A DNA stretch of 13,388 nucleotides from a virus: IMG/VR virus record IMGVR_UViG_3300045988_103977, one strand, 5' to 3'. A model generated the notes under the pieces. That model was given only the letters and a program-made list of their open reading frames with translations, was not told where the DNA came from and did no database searches. Below, in pieces: positions 1 to 13,388 of the stretch. Made by a program: the position numbers and the translations under genes. The stretch's first letter is position 1; every line of letters begins with the position of its first letter.

Positions 1-43
1 AAAGTATATACATATCCGTGTGTCACGGACATTTTCCCCAATT

Positions 44-117
44 TGTCCGCCAGTGACGGACACAGTTCTCTCCGTCTGTCCGCCGCCGACAAACACAAAC
101 CGCCCGATTTGTCCGCC
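44..117. repeat. Phased TGTCCGCC boxes inside the ITR (mirrored at 13272..13345)
   Basis: TGTCCGCC occurs at 44-51, 77-84 and 110-117, exactly 33 bp apart. Two of the copies extend to ATTTGTCCGCC. Inverted copies of the core, CGGACA, lie at 26-31 and 57-62. A short palindrome, TCCGTG-TGT-CACGGA, lies at 15-29. Confidence 0.85.
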
Positions 118-153
118 GTCGAAGAACACATAAACCAAACATATGTTCGAAAT

Positions 154-234
154 GTGGCTCCCTCGCTCCGCTCGGTCGCCCGTGGCTCCCTCCGCTCGGT
201 CGCTTACCGCTCCGCTCCCTCCGGTCGCTCCGCC
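154..234. repeat. GC-rich degenerate tandem repeat inside the ITR (mirrored at 13155..13235)
   Basis: GTGGCTCCCTCGCTCCGCTCGGTCGC (154-179) is followed by GTGGCTCCCTCCGCTCGGTCGC (182-203), the same unit minus CGCT. A permuted third unit (207-234) is built from the same CCGCTC / GCTCCCT / CGGTCGC blocks. I counted 62 G+C in these 81 nt, with a single A on the top strand, in an otherwise AT-rich genome. Confidence 0.85.
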
Positions 235-294
235 ATGAGTTAGTCCTGATTAACTACTAGGGAACAAAGTTAATCCTAACTAACTCACCCACTC

Positions 295-321
295 AAAAAG
301 AGGGCAACCTTAGTCACCCTC
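295..321 (-). terminator. Rho-independent terminator closing the minus-strand late operon
   Basis: The minus strand reads GAGGGTGAC-TAAG-GTTGCCCTC followed by TTTTT. That is a 9-bp stem including two G-U pairs and a 4-nt loop. It lies 11 nt after the stop of the 332..1618 gene and just outside the ITR. Confidence 0.75.
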
Positions 322-331
322 TCATACCTCA

Positions 332-6608: not shown

Positions 6609-7172
6609 TTACCCCCTTGTCATAATTTCTGGTGGATTAATAATAGCCGCTGTCATTTCATCAACAGTCGGAACATGATTCCCGCCAGATAAATCCTGTG
6701 CAATCCCATTCGCCTGTACCGCTCTAGTCAGTGCATTGATGGAATTGGTCAACTGGTCATTGTTTGGGAACTGTCGGTTCACAATGCTCTGAGTCGGCAT
6801 CCCACTGTAATTTCCCTGCTGAAAAGCATAGTCTACCATCTGACTCTGTGCCTGTCCTGCCATTGCCGGATTCGTAAGCTGTCCCTGTAATAATTCCGGT
6901 GGTGTGACCATCTGCTGTGTCATTGCTCCCACTGGAACTGGCGGCATTCCCATGTTTGGCTGTGGTGCTGGTGCTGGTGCTGGTGCTGGTGCTGGTGCTG
7001 GTGCTGGTGCTGGTGATGGTGCTGGTGCTGGTGCTGGTGCTGGTGCTGGTGCTGGTGCTGGTGCTGGTGCTGGCTGATTATAAGCGACTGTAGTCTGGCT
7101 GTTCACAAGAGACAGAATGTCGGCTTTTGTAAAGCCTGCCCCGGCTAATGCGATAATGTCATTCATTGTCAT
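6609..7172 (-). CDS. Putative scaffolding protein with a 40-residue (X-Pro)20 tract
   Basis: 187-aa ORF with AAAGGAG 9 nt upstream of the ATG. It lies immediately upstream of the capsid gene, the phi29 gp7 position. It has a short helical N-terminus, then QP(AP)9SP(AP)8QP, then a Gln/Met/Pro-rich region and a C-terminal helical part. The function is positional inference. Confidence 0.45.
   Translation of the reverse strand: MTMNDIIALAGAGFTKADILSLVNSQTTVAYNQPAPAPAPAPAPAPAPAPAPSPAPAPAPAPAPAPAPAPQPNMGMPPVPVGAMTQQMVTPPELLQGQLTNPAMAGQAQSQMVDYAFQQGNYSGMPTQSIVNRQFPNNDQLTNSINALTRAVQANGIAQDLSGGNHVPTVDEMTAAIINPPEIMTRG
6957..7076. repeat. Hexanucleotide tandem repeat (TGGTGC)n, 20 units, coding
   Basis: There are 17 perfect TGGTGC units plus one TGGTGA (7011..7016) across 6963..7070. 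These are flanked by TGGCTG variants at 6957 and 7071. The repeat encodes the Pro-Ala tract on the minus strand. Confidence 0.95.
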
Positions 7173-7691: not shown

Positions 7692-7735
7692 TCGTTCACC
7701 TACTTTCTTTCGGAACTCCGTGCAATCGTGTCATA

Positions 7736-7826
7736 TGTGAGGGAAGTCCGAGTCGTGAGTTGGACGAACTCATGCACTACAGTTCCGCTGTATGTCCTTG
7801 TGCTACGGACTTTTGTTTCCCTCACA
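7736..7826 (-). ncRNA. Candidate structured RNA (three-way junction): pRNA-like element or stabilising 5' leader
   Basis: The outer helix pairs 7736..7745 with 7817..7826 (10 perfect bp) and 7746..7750 with 7806..7810 (5 bp), separated by a 6-nt bulge at 7811..7816. The first inner hairpin pairs 7756..7761 with 7767..7772 and has its loop at 7762..7766. The second pairs 7778..7782 with 7788..7792 and has its loop at 7783..7787. The first loop (minus-strand CGUCC) is complementary to GGAC in the junction strand (7795..7798). The structure lies in a 146-bp non-coding gap, and a promoter is positioned to start transcription at the base of the helix. Confidence 0.4.
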
Positions 7827-7831
7827 CATAC

Positions 7832-7860: not shown

Positions 7861-8902
7861 GAAGAAATTTCGATTCTATGTCCTCAAAATAGATTTTATC
7901 CTCAAGGTAGTTGATGTTCCATATCCATGCATAGTACCGTTTAAAAGCCTTAATGTTCTTTTCATTGATTCCGGTAAAGGTTCGGATAGGGACTCCCTGT
8001 TTGTGTTTACAGACGTAAAGCATATCTGAGGACTTGTGTTCGTATATCGCGATTTCTTCAAAGAATACCAGTGGGAGATATTCTGAGAGGTTTTGGGTTC
8101 TTACGTCTGAGTAATCCGTGTCGTAGAACTCATTTCCTAGAGCCATCTGAGAAAAGCCGCTGTGCTCACCTACCATTTTATAGAGTGCTGTTTCTTTCTT
8201 GGCTTGTGAGATAGGACTGTTACACAGGTTATAGAGTGCTATTCCCCTTGACTTGAGAAAAGCTGTTTCCTGCCGCTTCCGTGACATATCCGCAACTTTA
8301 CGGATGAGTCCCAGACTGGCAAACAGTTCACAACCCACATTATCAGAGTTTGAAAAACATAACACCTGTAACGGTGGAAGTCCTTTTAGTTCTCTATTAC
8401 GGTTCATAGTTTCATAACCATGCAAGAATGATTCTGCAATGCCGCGTGGAACCCTGTCCCCTTTTTGTGGGATGAATTCGTCCCAAAACCACAATGATAC
8501 ATCCTCAGCAGAGAATCCACGCAAGTTAGATAATGTTGTGATAGCAGAGCCATATCCTACGGGTTTTCCGACTGGTGTCATCTTTCCATCTTCATCTTCC
8601 TCCGTGTGATAATATCCTGCAATATTATTAATGGAATAAGGCTGTATGTTATATCCTAAATCACTATTAATAGGTTTAAATGGGGACAGTTCTTTATTTT
8701 TGATTTTGTCAAGCTGTGTCTGTTTCGTTCGGGAATACATAAAGGTCTTGTGTTCTTCCAAGGCATATTTCAAACCACCATATGTCTTTCCTGTACCTCT
8801 GCCGCCCCAGATAAAATTAAAAGGATAGCCGTTGTCGACTATCCTCTTAATGTTCAAATATCCTTGTGGTGTGTACAGTTCGGATTTTTTCTTACTTGAC
8901 AT
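7838..8902 (-). CDS. DNA encapsidation ATPase (phi29 gp16-like)
   Basis: I place the start at ATG 8902 (MSSKKKSELYTPQGYL...), giving 354 aa. The 46 upstream codons of the track ORF overlap the preceding gene. ELYTPQGYL...NFIWGGRGTGKTY resembles phi29 gp16 LFYNPQKML...NFVIGARGIGKSY (Walker A). LWFWDEFIPQK resembles IVFDEFIREK (Walker B). METMNRNRE...VLCFSNS resembles MDTVFRNRE...CICLSNA. The phi29 sequences are from memory. Confidence 0.9.
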   Translation of the reverse strand: MSSKKKSELYTPQGYLNIKRIVDNGYPFNFIWGGRGTGKTYGGLKYALEEHKTFMYSRTKQTQLDKIKNKELSPFKPINSDLGYNIQPYSINNIAGYYHTEEDEDGKMTPVGKPVGYGSAITTLSNLRGFSAEDVSLWFWDEFIPQKGDRVPRGIAESFLHGYETMNRNRELKGLPPLQVLCFSNSDNVGCELFASLGLIRKVADMSRKRQETAFLKSRGIALYNLCNSPISQAKKETALYKMVGEHSGFSQMALGNEFYDTDYSDVRTQNLSEYLPLVFFEEIAIYEHKSSDMLYVCKHKQGVPIRTFTGINEKNIKAFKRYYAWIWNINYLEDKIYFEDIESKFLLDSYFHM

Positions 8903-9245
8903 ATTTTGCCGTGATATATTCACGGTTGTTCTTGCTACGTTCTGACACAATTTCGATACATACGTCTGCGACTTTGCACTTATTAGCAAGTTCCATAATT
9001 CTGTCAAAGGTACGAATAAATGCCGCTGATGTCGTTGCAAATACCTGACCCTCAGTTGTTAATACAGTAAGGATTCTTACCATTTCGCTGTATGCATTGA
9101 ACTCTTCATAGAGGCAATATTTGTCAACGTGTACCTGCTGACCTTTAAGGTCTGCTCCGCGTAAACGGTCTGGCGACTCGAACATGTCATAAGATAAATC
9201 CATTGTCCACTCATTGTCCATAATATTTGTTTTTACAATATCCAT
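8892..9245 (-). CDS. Early protein, possibly a phi29 p5-like ssDNA-binding protein
   Basis: 117-aa ORF with AAGGAG 8 nt upstream of the ATG. ILTVLTTEGQVFATTSAAFIRTF...CIEIVSERSKNNREYITAKY resembles recalled phi29 p5 TVTTIFAADGSLYSAISKTV...KVKVVQGTSSKGNVFFSLQL. The functional call rests on that weak, memory-based similarity. Confidence 0.4.
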   Translation of the reverse strand: MDIVKTNIMDNEWTMDLSYDMFESPDRLRGADLKGQQVHVDKYCLYEEFNAYSEMVRILTVLTTEGQVFATTSAAFIRTFDRIMELANKCKVADVCIEIVSERSKNNREYITAKYVK

Positions 9246-9271
9246 GTTATTTTCTCCTTTTCATGTTTCAT

Positions 9272-9285
9272 GTTTCACGTGAAAC
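9272..9285. promoter_or_regulatory. Palindrome GTTTCACGTGAAAC (site 3)
   Basis: Perfect 14-bp palindrome. It shares the 17-mer TGTTTCACGTGAAACGT with site 4. It is preceded by a tandem TGTTTCA half-repeat (9264..9277). It lies 27 nt upstream of the 9245 start codon. Confidence 0.5.
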
Positions 9286-9320
9286 GTAACACTTATATAT
9301 GAGGAGTTGCGTTTTTTAAT

Positions 9321-9334
9321 GTTTCACGTGAAAC
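9321..9334. promoter_or_regulatory. Palindrome GTTTCACGTGAAAC (site 4)
   Basis: Perfect 14-bp palindrome, 49 bp centre to centre from site 3. A TATATAAG -10-like element (minus strand, 9299..9292) lies between the two sites. I found no good -35 for it. Confidence 0.5.
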
Positions 9335-9396
9335 GTTGTATAGTTAGTGATTAGAATAGCGAATCGAAAGTTTTTAATATGTTATTGGTGTAGTGT

Positions 9397-9705
9397 TTAG
9401 TCCACTACTGGTTTCATTTCTTCAAGTGGTTCTGTTGACACACCACCAGATGCTTCGAGTTCCGCGATAGCGGCTCTGATGAAGTTTTCATCTGACAGGT
9501 GGTAAGTACAGAATTTGGTTTCTGTAGTGATGTTTTCTACAGTTGCACCAGACGGGATAAGTACCTCATCTTTCTTCATGTCATTATACATCTTGGTCTG
9601 TGTCCATGATGTACCAACAAATTCTCTTGTTGCTGTTTTGATTTCCTCAGAACCCTGTTCCTTATAGTACAGAGTCATTACTGTAGTTGTGATAGTTCTA
9701 ACCAA
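9397..9705 (-). CDS. Early protein, possibly a phi29 p6-like dsDNA-binding (histone-like) protein
   Basis: The track ORF starts at GTG 9714, but that GTG overlaps the GGAG of the ribosome-binding site AAAGGAG. The in-frame TTG at 9705 lies 8 nt downstream of it, giving 102 aa. RTITTTV...REFVGT...YHLSDENFIRAAIAE plus the acidic tail resembles recalled phi29 p6 REITKTTV...ETFVGN...YELPVEKFLEVATV plus its acidic tail. It is the first gene behind a strong early-type promoter. Confidence 0.4.
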   Translation of the reverse strand: MVRTITTTVMTLYYKEQGSEEIKTATREFVGTSWTQTKMYNDMKKDEVLIPSGATVENITTETKFCTYHLSDENFIRAAIAELEASGGVSTEPLEEMKPVVD

Positions 9706-9743
9706 CTTTCTCACTCCTTTCTTATTATAATGTCGTTTCGGAT

Positions 9744-10143: not shown

Positions 10144-10227
10144 ATGAGTCTGCTGATATTAGGTTTTATCATGGGTTATATGGTAGGAATGATAATGTTT
10201 GGTCTGGATGAGAGGAAAAAGAAATGA
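10144..10227 (+). CDS. 27-aa membrane micro-protein (MSLLILGFIMGYMVGMIMFGLDERKKK)
   Basis: Not in the ORF track. AAAGGAG lies 7 nt upstream of the ATG. It has a single hydrophobic helix and a basic tail. Its stop overlaps the next start (ATGA). Confidence 0.5.
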   Translation: MSLLILGFIMGYMVGMIMFGLDERKKK

Positions 10228-10397
10228 AAACTGTGAGTATCAATTTTGACGAGCGGATATTGAGCAACCTTGATTCCCTAGCTGAAAAGTTAGGGACTTC
10301 AAGGAGTAACACGTTAATGATCGTGTTGAGGGAGAACGTTATACTCTCCCTCTTAAATAAGGAGGACGGTAAATATGGCAAAGAAATCTGCAAGTAG
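10224..10397 (+). CDS. Ribbon-helix-helix (CopG/Arc/MetJ-type) DNA-binding protein, 57 aa
   Basis: Not in the ORF track. MKTVSINFDERILSNLDSLAEKLGTSRSNTLMIVLRE has the pattern of a beta-strand, helix A, a G-x-S/T turn and helix B. It is coupled to the upstream ORF by ATGA and overlaps the next gene by 23 nt. Confidence 0.65.
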   Translation: MKTVSINFDERILSNLDSLAEKLGTSRSNTLMIVLRENVILSLLNKEDGKYGKEICK

Positions 10398-10881
10398 GGT
10401 ACAGCTTGAAGTCAAGTACAGAGAGTTAAGAAAGAAACTGGTGGGACAGATTGAGAAAGTATCTAAAAGTGCTTACGCGAAAGATGTAGAAAAGGCTAAA
10501 AGGTATATTGAGCCTAGAATACCAAGCGCATCTAATATCAGTTCAAAGAGAAATTTAGAAATGGCTATCCGTGAAGCGGAAGCCGCATTGAAGAATAAAA
10601 CGTTTGTAATCTCAGAGCGTAAACGTATGAGAAAAAAGGCTATTGAGAGGTTAAATAAAACATTCGGAACTGACTACTTCAAGAACTATAGACAAGCAAC
10701 TAAATTCTATGATTTTATGGAATTGGTTCGAACTCATTCCGAAGATATCATCTATGATAGTGATAAAGCGGCAGAGATTTTTCTTGAACATAGTAAAGAA
10801 CCATTACAAAAAATTTTAAAGAGATATAGAGAGTATGAAGCAGAGTTTAGTAAAAGAAGTCCAAAAAGAGTATCTTTCTGA
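10375..10881 (+). CDS. Putative terminal protein (replication primer), 168 aa
   Basis: AAGGAGG lies 7 nt upstream of the ATG. The gene is immediately upstream of, and overlaps, the protein-primed polymerase gene, as phi29 gene 3 precedes gene 2. The product is very basic. Its N-terminus MAKKSASRV...YRELRKK resembles phi29 TP MARSPRIRI...YARLVKN. The IIYDSDK...QKILKRYREY...F-end resembles phi29 EEFDSEG...YKILSYLEQY...F-end (from memory). Confidence 0.5.
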   Translation: MAKKSASRVQLEVKYRELRKKLVGQIEKVSKSAYAKDVEKAKRYIEPRIPSASNISSKRNLEMAIREAEAALKNKTFVISERKRMRKKAIERLNKTFGTDYFKNYRQATKFYDFMELVRTHSEDIIYDSDKAAEIFLEHSKEPLQKILKRYREYEAEFSKRSPKRVSF

Positions 10882-12925
10882 TATTATCAGAGGTATTCCG
10901 ATTGCCAGAAACTACAACAGGAGAAAGAAAATTGATAAAACACTTTTCCGAAACTGTATGTGTGCTTTTGACATTGAAACTACTTATCTGGATGAGATTG
11001 AACAGAGTATCATGTATATTTGGCAATTCGCCGTCATGGATTTGAGGACGGAAAATATATGGTACTGTTTCGGTAGAACATGGTATGAGTTTATTGAACT
11101 GTTGAATAGCTTCTACCATGAGGGTATTACCGTTATGATATGGGTTCATAACTTGAGTTATGAATTTCAGTTTATGCGGCATTGGCTACCCTTTATGAAA
11201 GACAAGATATTTGCTCTCAAGTCGAGAAAAGTTGTGAGAGCGGATATTGACGGAGTACAGTTCAGGTGTTCGTATATACAGACAAATAAGAGTCTGGACG
11301 CATTCACAAAGGACATGGGTGTGAAGCATCAAAAGCTCAGTGGGGTTGAATTTGACTACTCGAAGAAGCGTTATCCATGGACTAAAATGTCAGAGTATGA
11401 ATTAGCATATGGATGTAATGATGTTGTCGGTCTACTCGAAGCTATGAAAGTTAGAATGGATATGGAACATGACACGTTATATTCTATACCACTCACCTCT
11501 ACGGGGTATGTCAGACGGCTTGCCAAGAATGCAATGAAGTCATTCAATCATAATCAGCTACAGGCTATGATGTGTAATACCGATGTGTATAGACTATTAA
11601 GACTCGAATTCCGTGGTGGTGACACACACGCAAACAGGTATCATGTTAATCAGATACTTGAAAACGTGGCAAGTTTTGACCGGGCAAGCAGTTATCCAGA
11701 TGTTATGTTAAATTATAGGTTTCCTATGAGTGCATTCACCCCTAGAATGATAACTGACATAGAAGAACTTGAACGAAAATGTAAAGTCAGAGATTGCTGT
11801 TTCATTGCTGTGTTCACTATCACCCATTTACAACAGAGGGATATATATTATGGGGCGCCGTACCTCAGTCTTGACAAGTCTATAGAGATAGGCGGTCAAG
11901 TAGTTGACAATGGACGGGTACTGAGTGCTGACAAGGCTGTGTATGTGTTCAATGATATTGATTGGAAGATAGTCAAGAGTGAGTACGTTGGTGAAGTTGA
12001 GATAAGTCAAGTATATATTGCCAAATATGGGTATTTACCACAAGCATTTAGGAATCTAGTCATTGACTTGTTCCACAAGAAAACATCACTCAAGAACGTT
12101 GAGGGGGAGGAATTGAACTATATGAGAAGTAAGGAATTAATCAACTCACTGTATGGGATGTGTGCTCAGAACCCTGTTAAGCCGGATGTAATATACATGG
12201 ATGAACCAGAACAGGCTTTTAAACTAGAAGAGATCGCGGACATAGGAGAAAAACTTGAGAAATACAACAAGAAAGCATTTCTTCTTTATGCATGGGGTTG
12301 TTGGGTAACTGCATGGGCGAGGTTAAAACTCAAGGAGATGATAAACATTGTGGGAGATAATTTTGTATATTGTGATACTGACTCTGTCAAGTTCCTTGTT
12401 CGTAATGATTATGATGGAATTATTCAGAAGATAGAAGAGTACAACAAGGGACTGAGAGAACTCAGTATTTCTAATAAGGGATTTGCTGATGATAAGAAAG
12501 GCATTACACACTACTTAGGTGTATATGAATACGAAGAAACATATAAACAGTTTAAGACGTTAGGAGCTAAGAAGTATGCATATGTTAGAGAAGATGGAAC
12601 ATTCAAAATTACGATTGCAGGTGTCCCCAAGAAAGCAGGGGCGAAAGAAATGGAAAGAATCGAGAACTTCAATGTTGGTTTCATATTCCGTAATACGGGT
12701 AAGTTGGAATCAGTCTACAATGACAGTGATTATGGAACTTACTATCCAGATGATTCACCAGAACATAACGTTGAGATTCGTTCAAATGTTGTGCTACGAG
12801 AATCAACGTATGAAATCGGTCTATCGGCTGAGTATATGTACATTCTGGCATCAGTTGGAAATTGGGACAGATTTATGACACAAGAAAGGATGAAAAGATA
12901 TGAACTTGAGAGTTTACGACGCTAA
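10835..12925 (+). CDS. Protein-primed family-B DNA polymerase (phi29 gp2-like)
   Basis: 696-aa ORF with all hallmark motifs: ExoI FDIETT, ExoII HNLSYEFQF, ExoIII YGCNDVVGL, motif A FDRASSYPDVM (Dx2SLYP type), motif B KELINSLYGMCAQ, motif C YCDTDS and KxY LGAKKYAY. Confidence 0.95.
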   Translation: MKQSLVKEVQKEYLSDIIRGIPIARNYNRRKKIDKTLFRNCMCAFDIETTYLDEIEQSIMYIWQFAVMDLRTENIWYCFGRTWYEFIELLNSFYHEGITVMIWVHNLSYEFQFMRHWLPFMKDKIFALKSRKVVRADIDGVQFRCSYIQTNKSLDAFTKDMGVKHQKLSGVEFDYSKKRYPWTKMSEYELAYGCNDVVGLLEAMKVRMDMEHDTLYSIPLTSTGYVRRLAKNAMKSFNHNQLQAMMCNTDVYRLLRLEFRGGDTHANRYHVNQILENVASFDRASSYPDVMLNYRFPMSAFTPRMITDIEELERKCKVRDCCFIAVFTITHLQQRDIYYGAPYLSLDKSIEIGGQVVDNGRVLSADKAVYVFNDIDWKIVKSEYVGEVEISQVYIAKYGYLPQAFRNLVIDLFHKKTSLKNVEGEELNYMRSKELINSLYGMCAQNPVKPDVIYMDEPEQAFKLEEIADIGEKLEKYNKKAFLLYAWGCWVTAWARLKLKEMINIVGDNFVYCDTDSVKFLVRNDYDGIIQKIEEYNKGLRELSISNKGFADDKKGITHYLGVYEYEETYKQFKTLGAKKYAYVREDGTFKITIAGVPKKAGAKEMERIENFNVGFIFRNTGKLESVYNDSDYGTYYPDDSPEHNVEIRSNVVLRESTYEIGLSAEYMYILASVGNWDRFMTQERMKRYELESLRR

Positions 12926-13058: not shown

Positions 13059-13067
13059 TTTCTAATA

Positions 13068-13096
13068 AGAGGATGGCTTCGGCTGTCCTCTTTTTT
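13068..13096 (+). terminator. Rho-independent terminator closing the plus-strand early operon
   Basis: AGAGGATGGC-TTCG-GCTGTCCTCT, a 10-bp stem with two G-U pairs and a UUCG loop, runs into TTTTTT. It ends 7 nt before the ITR begins. Confidence 0.8.
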
Positions 13097-13103
13097 CGCG
13101 GGT

Positions 13104-13388
13104 AGTTAGTTAGGATTAACTTTGTTCCCTAGTAGTTAATCAGGACTAACTCATGGCGGAGCGACCGGAGGGAGCGGAGCGGTAAGCGACCGAGCGGAGG
13201 GAGCCACGGGCGACCGAGCGGAGCGAGGGAGCCACATTTCGAACATATGTTTGGTTTATGTGTTCTTCGACGGCGGACAAATCGGGCGGTTTGTGTTTGT
13301 CGGCGGCGGACAGACGGAGAGAACTGTGTCCGTCACTGGCGGACAAATTGGGGAAAATGTCCGTGACACACGGATATGTATATACTTT
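13104..13388. repeat. Right inverted terminal repeat (ITR-R), 285 bp
   Basis: Exact reverse complement of 1..285. The window ends ...GTATATACTTT-3', so the bottom strand also starts 5'-AAAGTA. Confidence 0.95.

Follow-up and report, generated by a model that had tools for sequence, protein, structure and literature searches.

What occupies the ends of a small linear phage genome when those ends are long, identical and internally organised, and which of their parts matter? The question is raised by the window analysed here, i.e., the whole 13,388-bp stretch of IMG/VR record IMGVR_UViG_3300045988_103977, which is a complete linear phi29-like podovirus genome (40.1% G+C) with an identical 285-bp inverted terminal repeat (ITR) at each end. 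These ends are most likely the replication origins of the phage. Our preferred reading, to which we give a probability of about 0.62, is that each ITR is a modular protein-primed origin in which a sequence-specific dimeric factor reads an array of 19-bp dyads at a fixed offset from the tip, and in which a GC-rich block is dispensable. Protein-primed replication is known mainly from phi29, PRD1 and adenovirus, and phi29 ends are recognised via the parental terminal protein (TP) and a non-specific DNA-wrapping protein. A fixed-offset dyad array, common to phages with polymerases ~35% identical, would provide a candidate minimal origin (nt 1–62 or 1–150) for in vitro systems, and as far as our literature searches show, this clade-wide terminal dyad signature has not been described before.

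An initial annotation, made from the letters alone, had described an AT-rich tip (AAAGTATATACATAT), a palindrome at 15–29 (TCCGTGTGTCACGGA), five TGTCCG/CGGACA cores in the first 117 bp and three TGTCCGCC boxes 33 bp apart, all within a 285-bp ITR. These observations hold: the two ends form an exact inverted repeat of 285 nt, the tip and palindrome are present, the cores reading TGTCCG stand at 44, 77 and 110 and those reading CGGACA at 26 and 57, and the boxes, which start at 44, 77 and 110 within 28-nt repeats (37–64, 70–97 and 103–130), are spaced exactly. The ITRs, their tip and their dyad sites are as follows.

1–285, plus strand: left ITR, identical to the reverse complement of 13104–13388, with the first mismatch at 286
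13104–13388, minus strand: right ITR, mirroring all left elements at 13389 minus x
1–12: AT-rich tip AAAGTATATACA, with 11 of 12 columns invariant in the clade
13–31: dyad site 1, TATCCG-TGTGTCA-CGGACA (TGTCCG-N7-CGGACA in relatives)
32–43: spacer TTTTCCCCAATT, partly conserved as YTTCCCCAAWTT
44–62: dyad site 2, TGTCCG-CCAGTGA-CGGACA, perfect, 31 bp from site 1
77–102: dyad site 3, TGTCCG-N7-CAAACA, with a weak right half, continuing into the invariant ACAAACACAAACC
110–128: dyad site 4, TGTCCG-N7-AGAACA, a match to the dyad pattern with a weak right half
13358–13376, 13327–13345, 13294–13312 and 13261–13279: dyads of the right ITR, in mirrored coordinates

The boxes are real, but the repeated unit is the dyad TGTCCG-N7-CGGACA rather than a direct repeat, and the CC of the box is not conserved in relatives. 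Site 2 matches this 19-bp pattern perfectly, site 1 with one mismatch, and sites 3 (77–95) and 4 with two mismatches each, in the right half. When up to three mismatches are allowed, the window holds 16 matches, 10 of which lie in the two ITRs; shuffled sequences gave 3.0 ± 1.6, and none of 200 reached 16. The exact hexamers TGTCCG and CGGACA occur just four times in the 12.8-kb non-ITR part, both strands counted. The sites are spaced by 31, 33 and 33 bp, i.e., about three helical turns, which fits binding on roughly one DNA face, as had been proposed for the boxes, although sequence cannot prove this. To our knowledge, the sites of TnrA/GlnR, CRP/FNR, CcpA, Spo0A, parS and Noc do not fit the half-site or the spacing of TGTCCG-N7-CGGACA. 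Two observations on individual matches can be added. The left half of site 1 is TATCCG in both ITRs of the window (13–18 and 13371–13376) and TGTCCG in all relatives examined, and an apparent dyad with two mismatches at 7793–7811 is a hairpin of a structured RNA (described below), not an ITR-type site.

Comparison with relatives sets the parts of this array apart. Relatives were fetched via their polymerase and their right ends aligned to the window ITR, so this polymerase-selected set is not biased to any ITR motif. The mean pairwise identity of the half-sites is 0.94–1.00 (0.81 for the weak right half of site 4), that of the spacers 0.6–0.8 and that of the 7-nt dyad centres 0.49–0.63; the left half of site 3 is 100% conserved, and 11 of the 13 columns of 90–102 are invariant. 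Segment by segment, this pattern resembles a footprint. Wherever the contig of a polymerase-selected relative with at least 53% identity extends into the terminal 60 nt, a dyad pair is present; this includes a 66% clade (L140, L142) and a 54% clade (L144, with the pair 21 bp apart, not 31). Aligning the ITRs of related contigs, which the initial annotation had suggested as a check, showed the boxes and their spacing to be kept and the GC-rich block not to be. Its proposal that the phased boxes are sites for an origin protein fares well in this respect: half-sites are conserved while centres and spacers drift, position and spacing are kept across a wide clade, and the boxes behave like protein-binding sites of an origin, a reading that conservation supports without proving it.

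The same alignments bear on whether the dyads act as duplex or as folded DNA. Each dyad can form a 6–9-bp stem with a 3–7-nt loop, and sites 1 and 2 are hairpins in predicted single-strand folds, as would suit dyads that work as hairpins, on the displaced single strand or within a panhandle, and not as protein sites in duplex DNA. However, the stems are invariant and show no compensatory changes, the 7-nt centre is not kept as a stem extension, the half-sites of sites 3 and 4 are unable to pair, and the single-strand fold of 1–153 is ordinary (z −1.6). Half-site sequence kept without stem covariation argues for duplex read-out by a dimer rather than for a hairpin, and we consider the hairpin explanation very unlikely.

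A wider set came from scanning a viral collection for two exact dyads 1–30 nt apart. This gave 95 matches, of which 51 start no more than 12 nt from the contig end and 62 no more than 43 nt. The contigs are 12.6–17.3 kb long; their polymerases range from 94% down to ~35% identity to that of the window, and their TP-like protein falls to 27% or becomes undetectable. Of the 50 non-redundant ends, 22 have site 1 starting at nt 13 and three have it later (nt 20 or 24), while 25 are truncated contig ends; complete contig ends always lie 12 nt ahead of dyad 1. The dyad-to-dyad spacing is 31 bp in 30 cases, 32 in 12, 34 in four, and 21 and 40 in one each, and a TGTCCG-to-TGTCCG spacing of 33 bp occurs in 20 cases. 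Half-sites reach 37 per kb in the terminal 140 nt vs 0.24 per kb internally, a comparison that is partly circular for a pattern-seeded set. The dyad-pair pattern proved specific, and ~30 of its internal matches are unrelated GC-rich hairpins, e.g., TGTCCGGGGGGGCCGGACA. A separate scan of viral contigs for TGTCCGCC-N25-TGTCCGCC returned 120 chance matches in unrelated large contigs (L002–L121), which were ignored.

The 12-nt tip itself varies by group (AAAGTATATACA, GCGWTTATCTCA or AAACATATATAC), so the dyads are better conserved than the tip. In the window the tip opens with AAAGTA, as in phi29, and both genome ends have 5′-AAA. The phi29 ITR consists of AAAGTA, and sliding-back requires terminal reiteration (PMC11476376, PMC4974454); the terminal AAA of the window would thus allow sliding-back initiation. 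An independent ENA assembly (ERZ27272119) that is 99.95% identical has the same expanded GC block, and many independent contigs terminate 12 nt ahead of the first dyad, so the ITR is not an assembly artefact. The dyad array marks the true genome termini of this clade in metagenomes.

Some further observations concern the ends of particular contigs. The first 13 nt of the reverse-complemented end of L238 are an Illumina adapter remnant (GCTCTTCCGATCT) joined straight onto the phage terminus, which lies 10 nt ahead of dyad 1; this indicates a physical DNA terminus in the library. The two ITR copies are non-identical in L179 (13,467 bp), L206 (12,611 bp) and L169, at 83%, 78% and 93% identity, respectively, and those of L179 and L206 also differ by indels; this reflects either true end-to-end divergence or strain-chimeric assemblies. 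An Rfam search found nothing in the ITR and no pRNA, its sole match being a chance hairpin-ribozyme one (E = 0.37). The open reading frame (ORF) at 43–243 within the ITR was rejected as coding: it has a stop in L136, it spans the variable block, and its tblastn matches reflect DNA conservation only.

How might such an end work? A complex of TP and polymerase would initiate at the 12-nt, AT-rich, AAA-ended tip by sliding-back (PMC4974454). The four 19-bp dyads that begin at nt 13, two of them strong and two with weak right halves, would be read by a sequence-specific dimeric factor, which would occupy the strong dyads (13–31 and 44–62) and spread cooperatively to the weaker ones (77–95 and 110–128), assembling on roughly one DNA face and at a set distance from the end that carries the protein. 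The resulting nucleoprotein complex would position, mark or open the end, like the core and auxiliary (NFI) sites of adenovirus or the p6 complex of phi29. A palindrome at 136–149 may recruit a second factor, possibly host LexA; the GC block would be a lineage-specific, slippage-prone expansion of a 25–30-nt GC-rich spacer that origin function does not require; and outward-facing terminators inside each ITR would keep transcription off the origin. What is observed is the anatomy, the pattern of conservation and the constancy of position and spacing, and from them we infer the binding of a protein, what kind of protein it is and its effect on initiation.

Known systems share parts of this layout. 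The adenovirus ITR has a core origin at 9–18 with auxiliary sites for NFI and Oct-1, and an NFI dimer on the dyad TGGC-N6-GCCAA positions the TP-polymerase complex. The window is similar in its long ITR, in having a conserved element set a constant distance away from a tip that varies more, and in the adjacent dyad site. It differs in that adenovirus is a eukaryotic virus that uses host transcription factors and has no sequence relationship to the window, which has four phased copies of one dyad type. Plasmid iterons are likewise repeated, helically phased sites (bound by an initiator in plasmids) beside an easily melted AT-rich stretch, but they are direct repeats bound by Rep monomers in theta-type replication, whereas the window has dyads on a linear protein-primed end and no Rep-like gene, and no cognate initiator was found.

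Among small protein-primed podoviruses, Streptococcus phage Cp-1 (236 bp) and Clostridium phage HM2 (~170 bp) also have ITRs of hundreds of bp. We know of no phased TGTCCG dyads described for Cp-1. The 170-bp ITR of HM2 has degenerate TGT-N13-ACA dyads at the same positions as the window (TGTGCA-N7-AGGACA at 14–32 and TGTCTT-N7-AATACA at 44–62), but with other half-sites and with an inward promoter in the ITR. The ITRs of C. perfringens picoviruses are just 25–30 bp (PMC3362512). With phi29 the window shares a linear genome, a protein-primed family-B polymerase, the first six bases AAAGTA and the terminal AAA suited to sliding-back. In phi29, a nucleoprotein complex beside the ends aids initiation, and sites for the host proteins Spo0A and parS sites lie near the ends (PMC4974454, PMC2731898). 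The differences are that the phi29 ITR is 6 bp vs 285 bp here, and that p6 binds without sequence specificity and with a 24-bp periodicity, whereas the window appears to rely on conserved 19-bp dyads 31–33 bp apart. No p6 homologue was found among the small early ORFs of the window, and its 31–33-bp dyad spacing differs from the 24-bp non-specific binding expected of a p6-type origin complex.

The candidates for the proteins involved lie together in the early region.

10224–10397, plus strand: 57-aa ribbon-helix-helix (RHH)-like protein (MKTVSINFDERILSNLDSLAEKLGTSRSNTLMIVLRE), with CopG (E = 0.05) and then NikR as best PDB matches
10375–10881, plus strand: candidate TP, 168 aa, overlapping the polymerase start, with basic termini and a YDS motif invariant in its family
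10835–12925, plus strand: family-B DNA polymerase of the protein-primed type (PF03175 DNA_pol_B_2, E = 7e-14)

The polymerase is 22–24% identical to those of phi29 and PZA. The initial annotation had named two possible origin proteins, and neither can be assigned. One, the ORF at 9397–9714, was rejected as a p6-like protein: it shows no resemblance to p6 and occurs in a few clades only, and no small early ORF gave a p6-like match. The other, 10375–10881, is plausible as the terminal protein by position only. It had no match in Pfam, PHROG or PDB, scored a probability of 0.9% against PZA gp3 with hhalign, and is detectable in nine of 15 representative dyad-bearing groups. Its family has few invariant residues, among them a Tyr near the N-terminus and an (I/F)(Y/F)DS motif (D128 and S129 in the window protein), and its C-terminal tails are very basic; as a speculation, priming could take place on Ser129 or on Tyr127, which is nearly conserved. 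The small RHH-like ORF upstream of it is a candidate sequence-specific DNA binder. It is unlikely to be the dyad binder, being confined to the window, L206, L219 and L223 clades while dyads are far wider; its target could, speculatively, be the AGTTAGT heptamers of the inner ITR. What all 15 representative genomes have in common is the polymerase, the connector, a 221-aa structural protein, and tail and lysis proteins. Co-variation of half-sites with a protein could reveal the origin-binding protein.

Transcription offers another explanation for the boxes. They could be operators of a phage transcription regulator that acts on ITR-adjacent promoters, with the origin confined to the terminal nucleotides, and this would account for the dyad pairs found 40–100 nt upstream of strong early promoters in 16–17-kb relatives and in L218, and for the promoter within the HM2 ITR. 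The gene layout of the window bears directly on this: late genes run leftward from ~9.2 kb to 332 and early genes rightward from ~9.8 kb to 13,058, so that both terminal operons point outward, and each is terminated before the ITR.

298–323, minus strand: intrinsic terminator that closes the leftward late operon, immediately interior to the left ITR (−16.6 kcal/mol, z −3.4)
13067–13092, plus strand: intrinsic terminator that closes the rightward early (polymerase) operon, immediately interior to the right ITR (−18.5 kcal/mol, z −3.6)

The left terminator has an 11-bp stem, a tetraloop and a U run, and relatives have covarying stems at the terminator sites. As annotated features the two terminators span 293–323 and 13067–13098. 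A promoter scan of 1–285 predicted none on either strand. The outward-facing terminators together with the lack of a predicted ITR promoter indicate that the ITR of the window genome is kept free of transcription. Since transcription would also leave the fixed 12-nt tip offset across clades unexplained, we think it improbable that the boxes are operators alone.

The part of the ITR that stands out most by composition is the least conserved.

154–234, plus strand: GC-rich degenerate tandem repeat, about three copies of a 24–28-nt unit, with a top strand rich in CTCCG/TCCGC
13155–13235: GC block of the right ITR, the mirror of 154–234

The composition given earlier was accurate (C41, G21, T18 and A1, i.e., 62/81 or 76.5% G+C with a single A). 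TRF (a tandem-repeat finder) reports a period of 24 with 2.7 copies and 75% matches, and the repeat families are spaced 24, 25 and 28 nt. The block had been proposed as a clamp against end fraying or as a nucleation or packaging signal, to which a low-affinity landing pad of half-sites can be added. Such a function would suit the most stable 81-mer of the genome (by nearest-neighbour energy), and five CTCCG cores stand in box orientation (P ~0.002 vs dinucleotide shuffles, although the tandem copies are not independent); GC-rich blocks of GTCCG pentamers also follow internal dyads in a distant group. However, the stretch shrinks to 15–33 nt with a core of GGCTYCGCTCCCTCCGGTCGCTCCGCC in close relatives, is absent from a sister clade (66% polymerase identity), and in the polymerase-selected relatives has a mean pairwise identity of 0.28 and no invariant column. 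A 4-nt indel within it accounts for all four gaps between the window and ERZ27272119. The expanded block in that genome and the indel together make the block real but hypervariable. Several of the closest contigs break within it, and a Logan contig stops just short of it. The variation is consistent with slippage or unequal exchange inside a tandem repeat whose copies at the two ends are kept alike. Judged by these alignments, the block is not needed by relatives, which for this element is the outcome that the initial annotation had named as refuting; the idea of a required clamp or signal is not supported, and any functional role for the GC island is unlikely; a weak one, as a low-affinity extension of the binding array, may exist. 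The variable part of the ITR is remodelled lineage by lineage: in L123, the last ~130 nt before the terminator have three copies of GGAACATTTTGTTCTAAACCAA in place of the block.

Several findings weigh against a dyad-read origin with a dispensable GC block. No binding protein was found: no small DNA-binding protein is common to the 15 representative dyad-bearing genomes, and the polymerase and, more weakly, the TP candidate are the sole replication proteins detectable across the dyad-bearing groups. Because the wide survey started from the dyad pattern, its enrichment figures are partly circular, and the one set free of this bias is the polymerase-selected one. The dyads are scattered patchily over a rough polymerase tree, where lineages that bear other ITR repeats lie among them. 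In the 16–17-kb relatives, extra dyad pairs (24 bp apart) stand ~390 nt inwards, upstream of an early promoter, so the sites are not solely tip-anchored or strictly phased and may also be transcriptional operators. Placement on the same face is only approximate because the 33-bp spacings build up ~100 degrees of rotation over two steps. GC-rich, TCCG/GTCCG-rich blocks recur beside dyads in a distant group, and the block is maybe not entirely functionless. In the 16–17-kb relatives the factor that reads the dyads probably doubles as a transcription regulator.

Between the dyads and the GC block lies the best-conserved element outside the boxes, which was absent from the list of the initial annotation.

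136–149: palindrome CAAACATATGTTCG (CGAACATATGTTTG on the other strand), of the Firmicutes LexA operator form GAAC-N4-GTTC/T
13240–13253: GAAC box of the right ITR, the mirror of 136–149

In the polymerase-selected relatives its mean pairwise identity is 0.98, with 13 of 14 columns invariant. CGAACATATGTTTG is the genome's best match (13/14) to CGAAC-N4-GTTCG and has the operator form, a GAAC-N4-GTTC dyad with one GTTT half tolerated; the consensus is that of Firmicutes. The recA and lexA operators of C. difficile have the same GAAC....GTTT form, within the Firmicutes LexA consensus (PMC4234289). Sister clades have a perfect GAACATATGTTC or GAACAGGTGTTC. Across relatives, GAAC-N4-GTTC is ~220-fold enriched at the ends (0.88 per kb terminal vs 0.004 per kb internal), and a relaxed GAAC-type box is found in 34 of the 50 non-redundant ends. 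The ends of the 14-kb relatives (L172, L238) have a 54-nt unit, [TGTCCG-N7-GAAACA] + GAACATATGTTC, in one to five tandem copies; it is the counterpart of window 110–149, and the array ends 20–25 nt upstream of the −35 hexamer of the early promoter.

These features suggest that host LexA could bind 136–149, perhaps with a host protein on the dyads, and that replication or early transcription would be held until an SOS response, which would complement the origin reading rather than replace it. Host-protein sites at phage ends have a precedent in phi29, in which Spo0A boxes at the ends block the p6 initiation complex and parS sites are present there too (PMC2731898); sites of parS consensus occur in other relatives of the window. 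Other findings speak against LexA. A host search (a GTDB genome scan and PLSDB) returned only phage contigs binned into metagenome-assembled genomes (MAGs) and distant plasmids. The window lacks the promoter adjacency expected of a LexA operator, with no sigma-70-like promoter predicted in the ITR and none overlapping the box. In L123 there are three additional copies whose centre is 5 nt long (GAACATTTTGTTC), a form that LexA is not expected to bind; the box always moves with a TGTCCG half-site as one repeat unit, as a phage-specific iteron would; and the 16–17-kb dyad-bearing group has no box. Any role of host LexA is therefore speculative, and we hold this reading only tentatively, at well below even odds.

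A comparison is available in GIL01, a linear protein-primed tectivirus with ITRs and Firmicutes-type LexA operators. Its LexA boxes overlap promoters outside the 73–74-bp ITR and maintain lysogeny. The box of the window differs in lying inside the ITR, away from predicted promoters (for the context of GIL01, see PMC8234876). A still broader idea is that a large radiation of uncultured gut phi29-like phages shares a sequence-specific, tip-locked dyad-pair origin module, 12 nt from the protein-linked tip, in contrast to the sequence-independent p6 system of phi29, and often coupled to ITR LexA operators, with SOS gating replication or early expression; this we regard as doubtful. If it were true, "strictly lytic-type" podoviruses could have a dormant or carrier state from which SOS releases them. 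Provided that it is real, the LexA-like box would widen the phi29 theme of host-regulator sites at the ends (Spo0A, parS) to SOS sensing in gut phages.

The innermost part of the ITR is a separate element.

236–287: imperfect inverted repeat of AGTTAGT/AGTTAAT heptamers in both orientations, with a conserved distal GTTAnTnnnAACTAACTCAC part

The two direct repeats previously placed at 242–286 exist (11/14 identical), but are better described as this imperfect inverted repeat, in which 236–255 and 268–287 are complementary at 17 of 20 positions. The left arm is deleted in five relatives, and in the polymerase-selected relatives the mean pairwise identity is 0.40 for 235–267 and 0.83 for the distal GTTAnT...AACTAACTCAC (268–285). 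The two ITRs together contain four AGTTAGT heptamers, and one more is at 9342–9348. This last one lies in a 151-nt intergenic region (9246–9396) between an SSB-like ORF (8892–9245) and ORF 9397–9714; just the first ~50 nt of this region are conserved in more distant relatives.

The rest of the genome is that of a phi29-type phage, with a phi29-type connector, a major capsid protein, a gp16-type packaging ATPase and a tail lysozyme. The closest public records are unannotated contigs from human faeces, and the closest cultured phages are Clostridium phage HM2 and Amedibacillus phages, with polymerases merely 34–37% identical. One further element lies beside the packaging gene.

7733–7831, minus strand: conserved intergenic structured RNA (~99 nt, three-way junction), flanked by the packaging ATPase stop (7838) and the start of a 62-aa ORF (7691)

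A covariance model built from eight relatives finds this RNA in 24 loci, down to L219 (67 bits), L145 (51) and L168 (42). Compensatory changes occur in 24 of its 28 pairs, and 94.6% of cells are paired vs 31–46% with slid partners, in an alignment that was fitted to the model and so favours the structure. The hairpin loops CGGAA and GUCCA are invariant in the eight-sequence seed alignment. Rfam gave no match for the RNA, as a prohead (packaging) RNA or otherwise; because it lies beside the packaging ATPase, it could be an analogue of prohead RNA.

A sequence that equals or nearly equals the Firmicutes parS (Spo0J/ParB) consensus, (T)GTTTCACGTGAAAC(A), is also present in relatives, either immediately past the structured RNA or close to genome ends: at ~6740–6760 in L132 and the homologous place in L139 and L142, near contig ends in L151, L153 and L155, and at ~285–305 in L168. 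The homologous place in the window lacks it; parS sites are known to be used by phi29 (PMC2731898). Finally, a near-perfect tandem repeat, (TGGTGC)x18.5 with 98% matches, occupies 6963–7073 and ranks second in stability among the stretches of the genome; it codes for an (Ala-Pro)n linker within a 187-aa protein (6609–7172, minus strand) upstream of the capsid gene.

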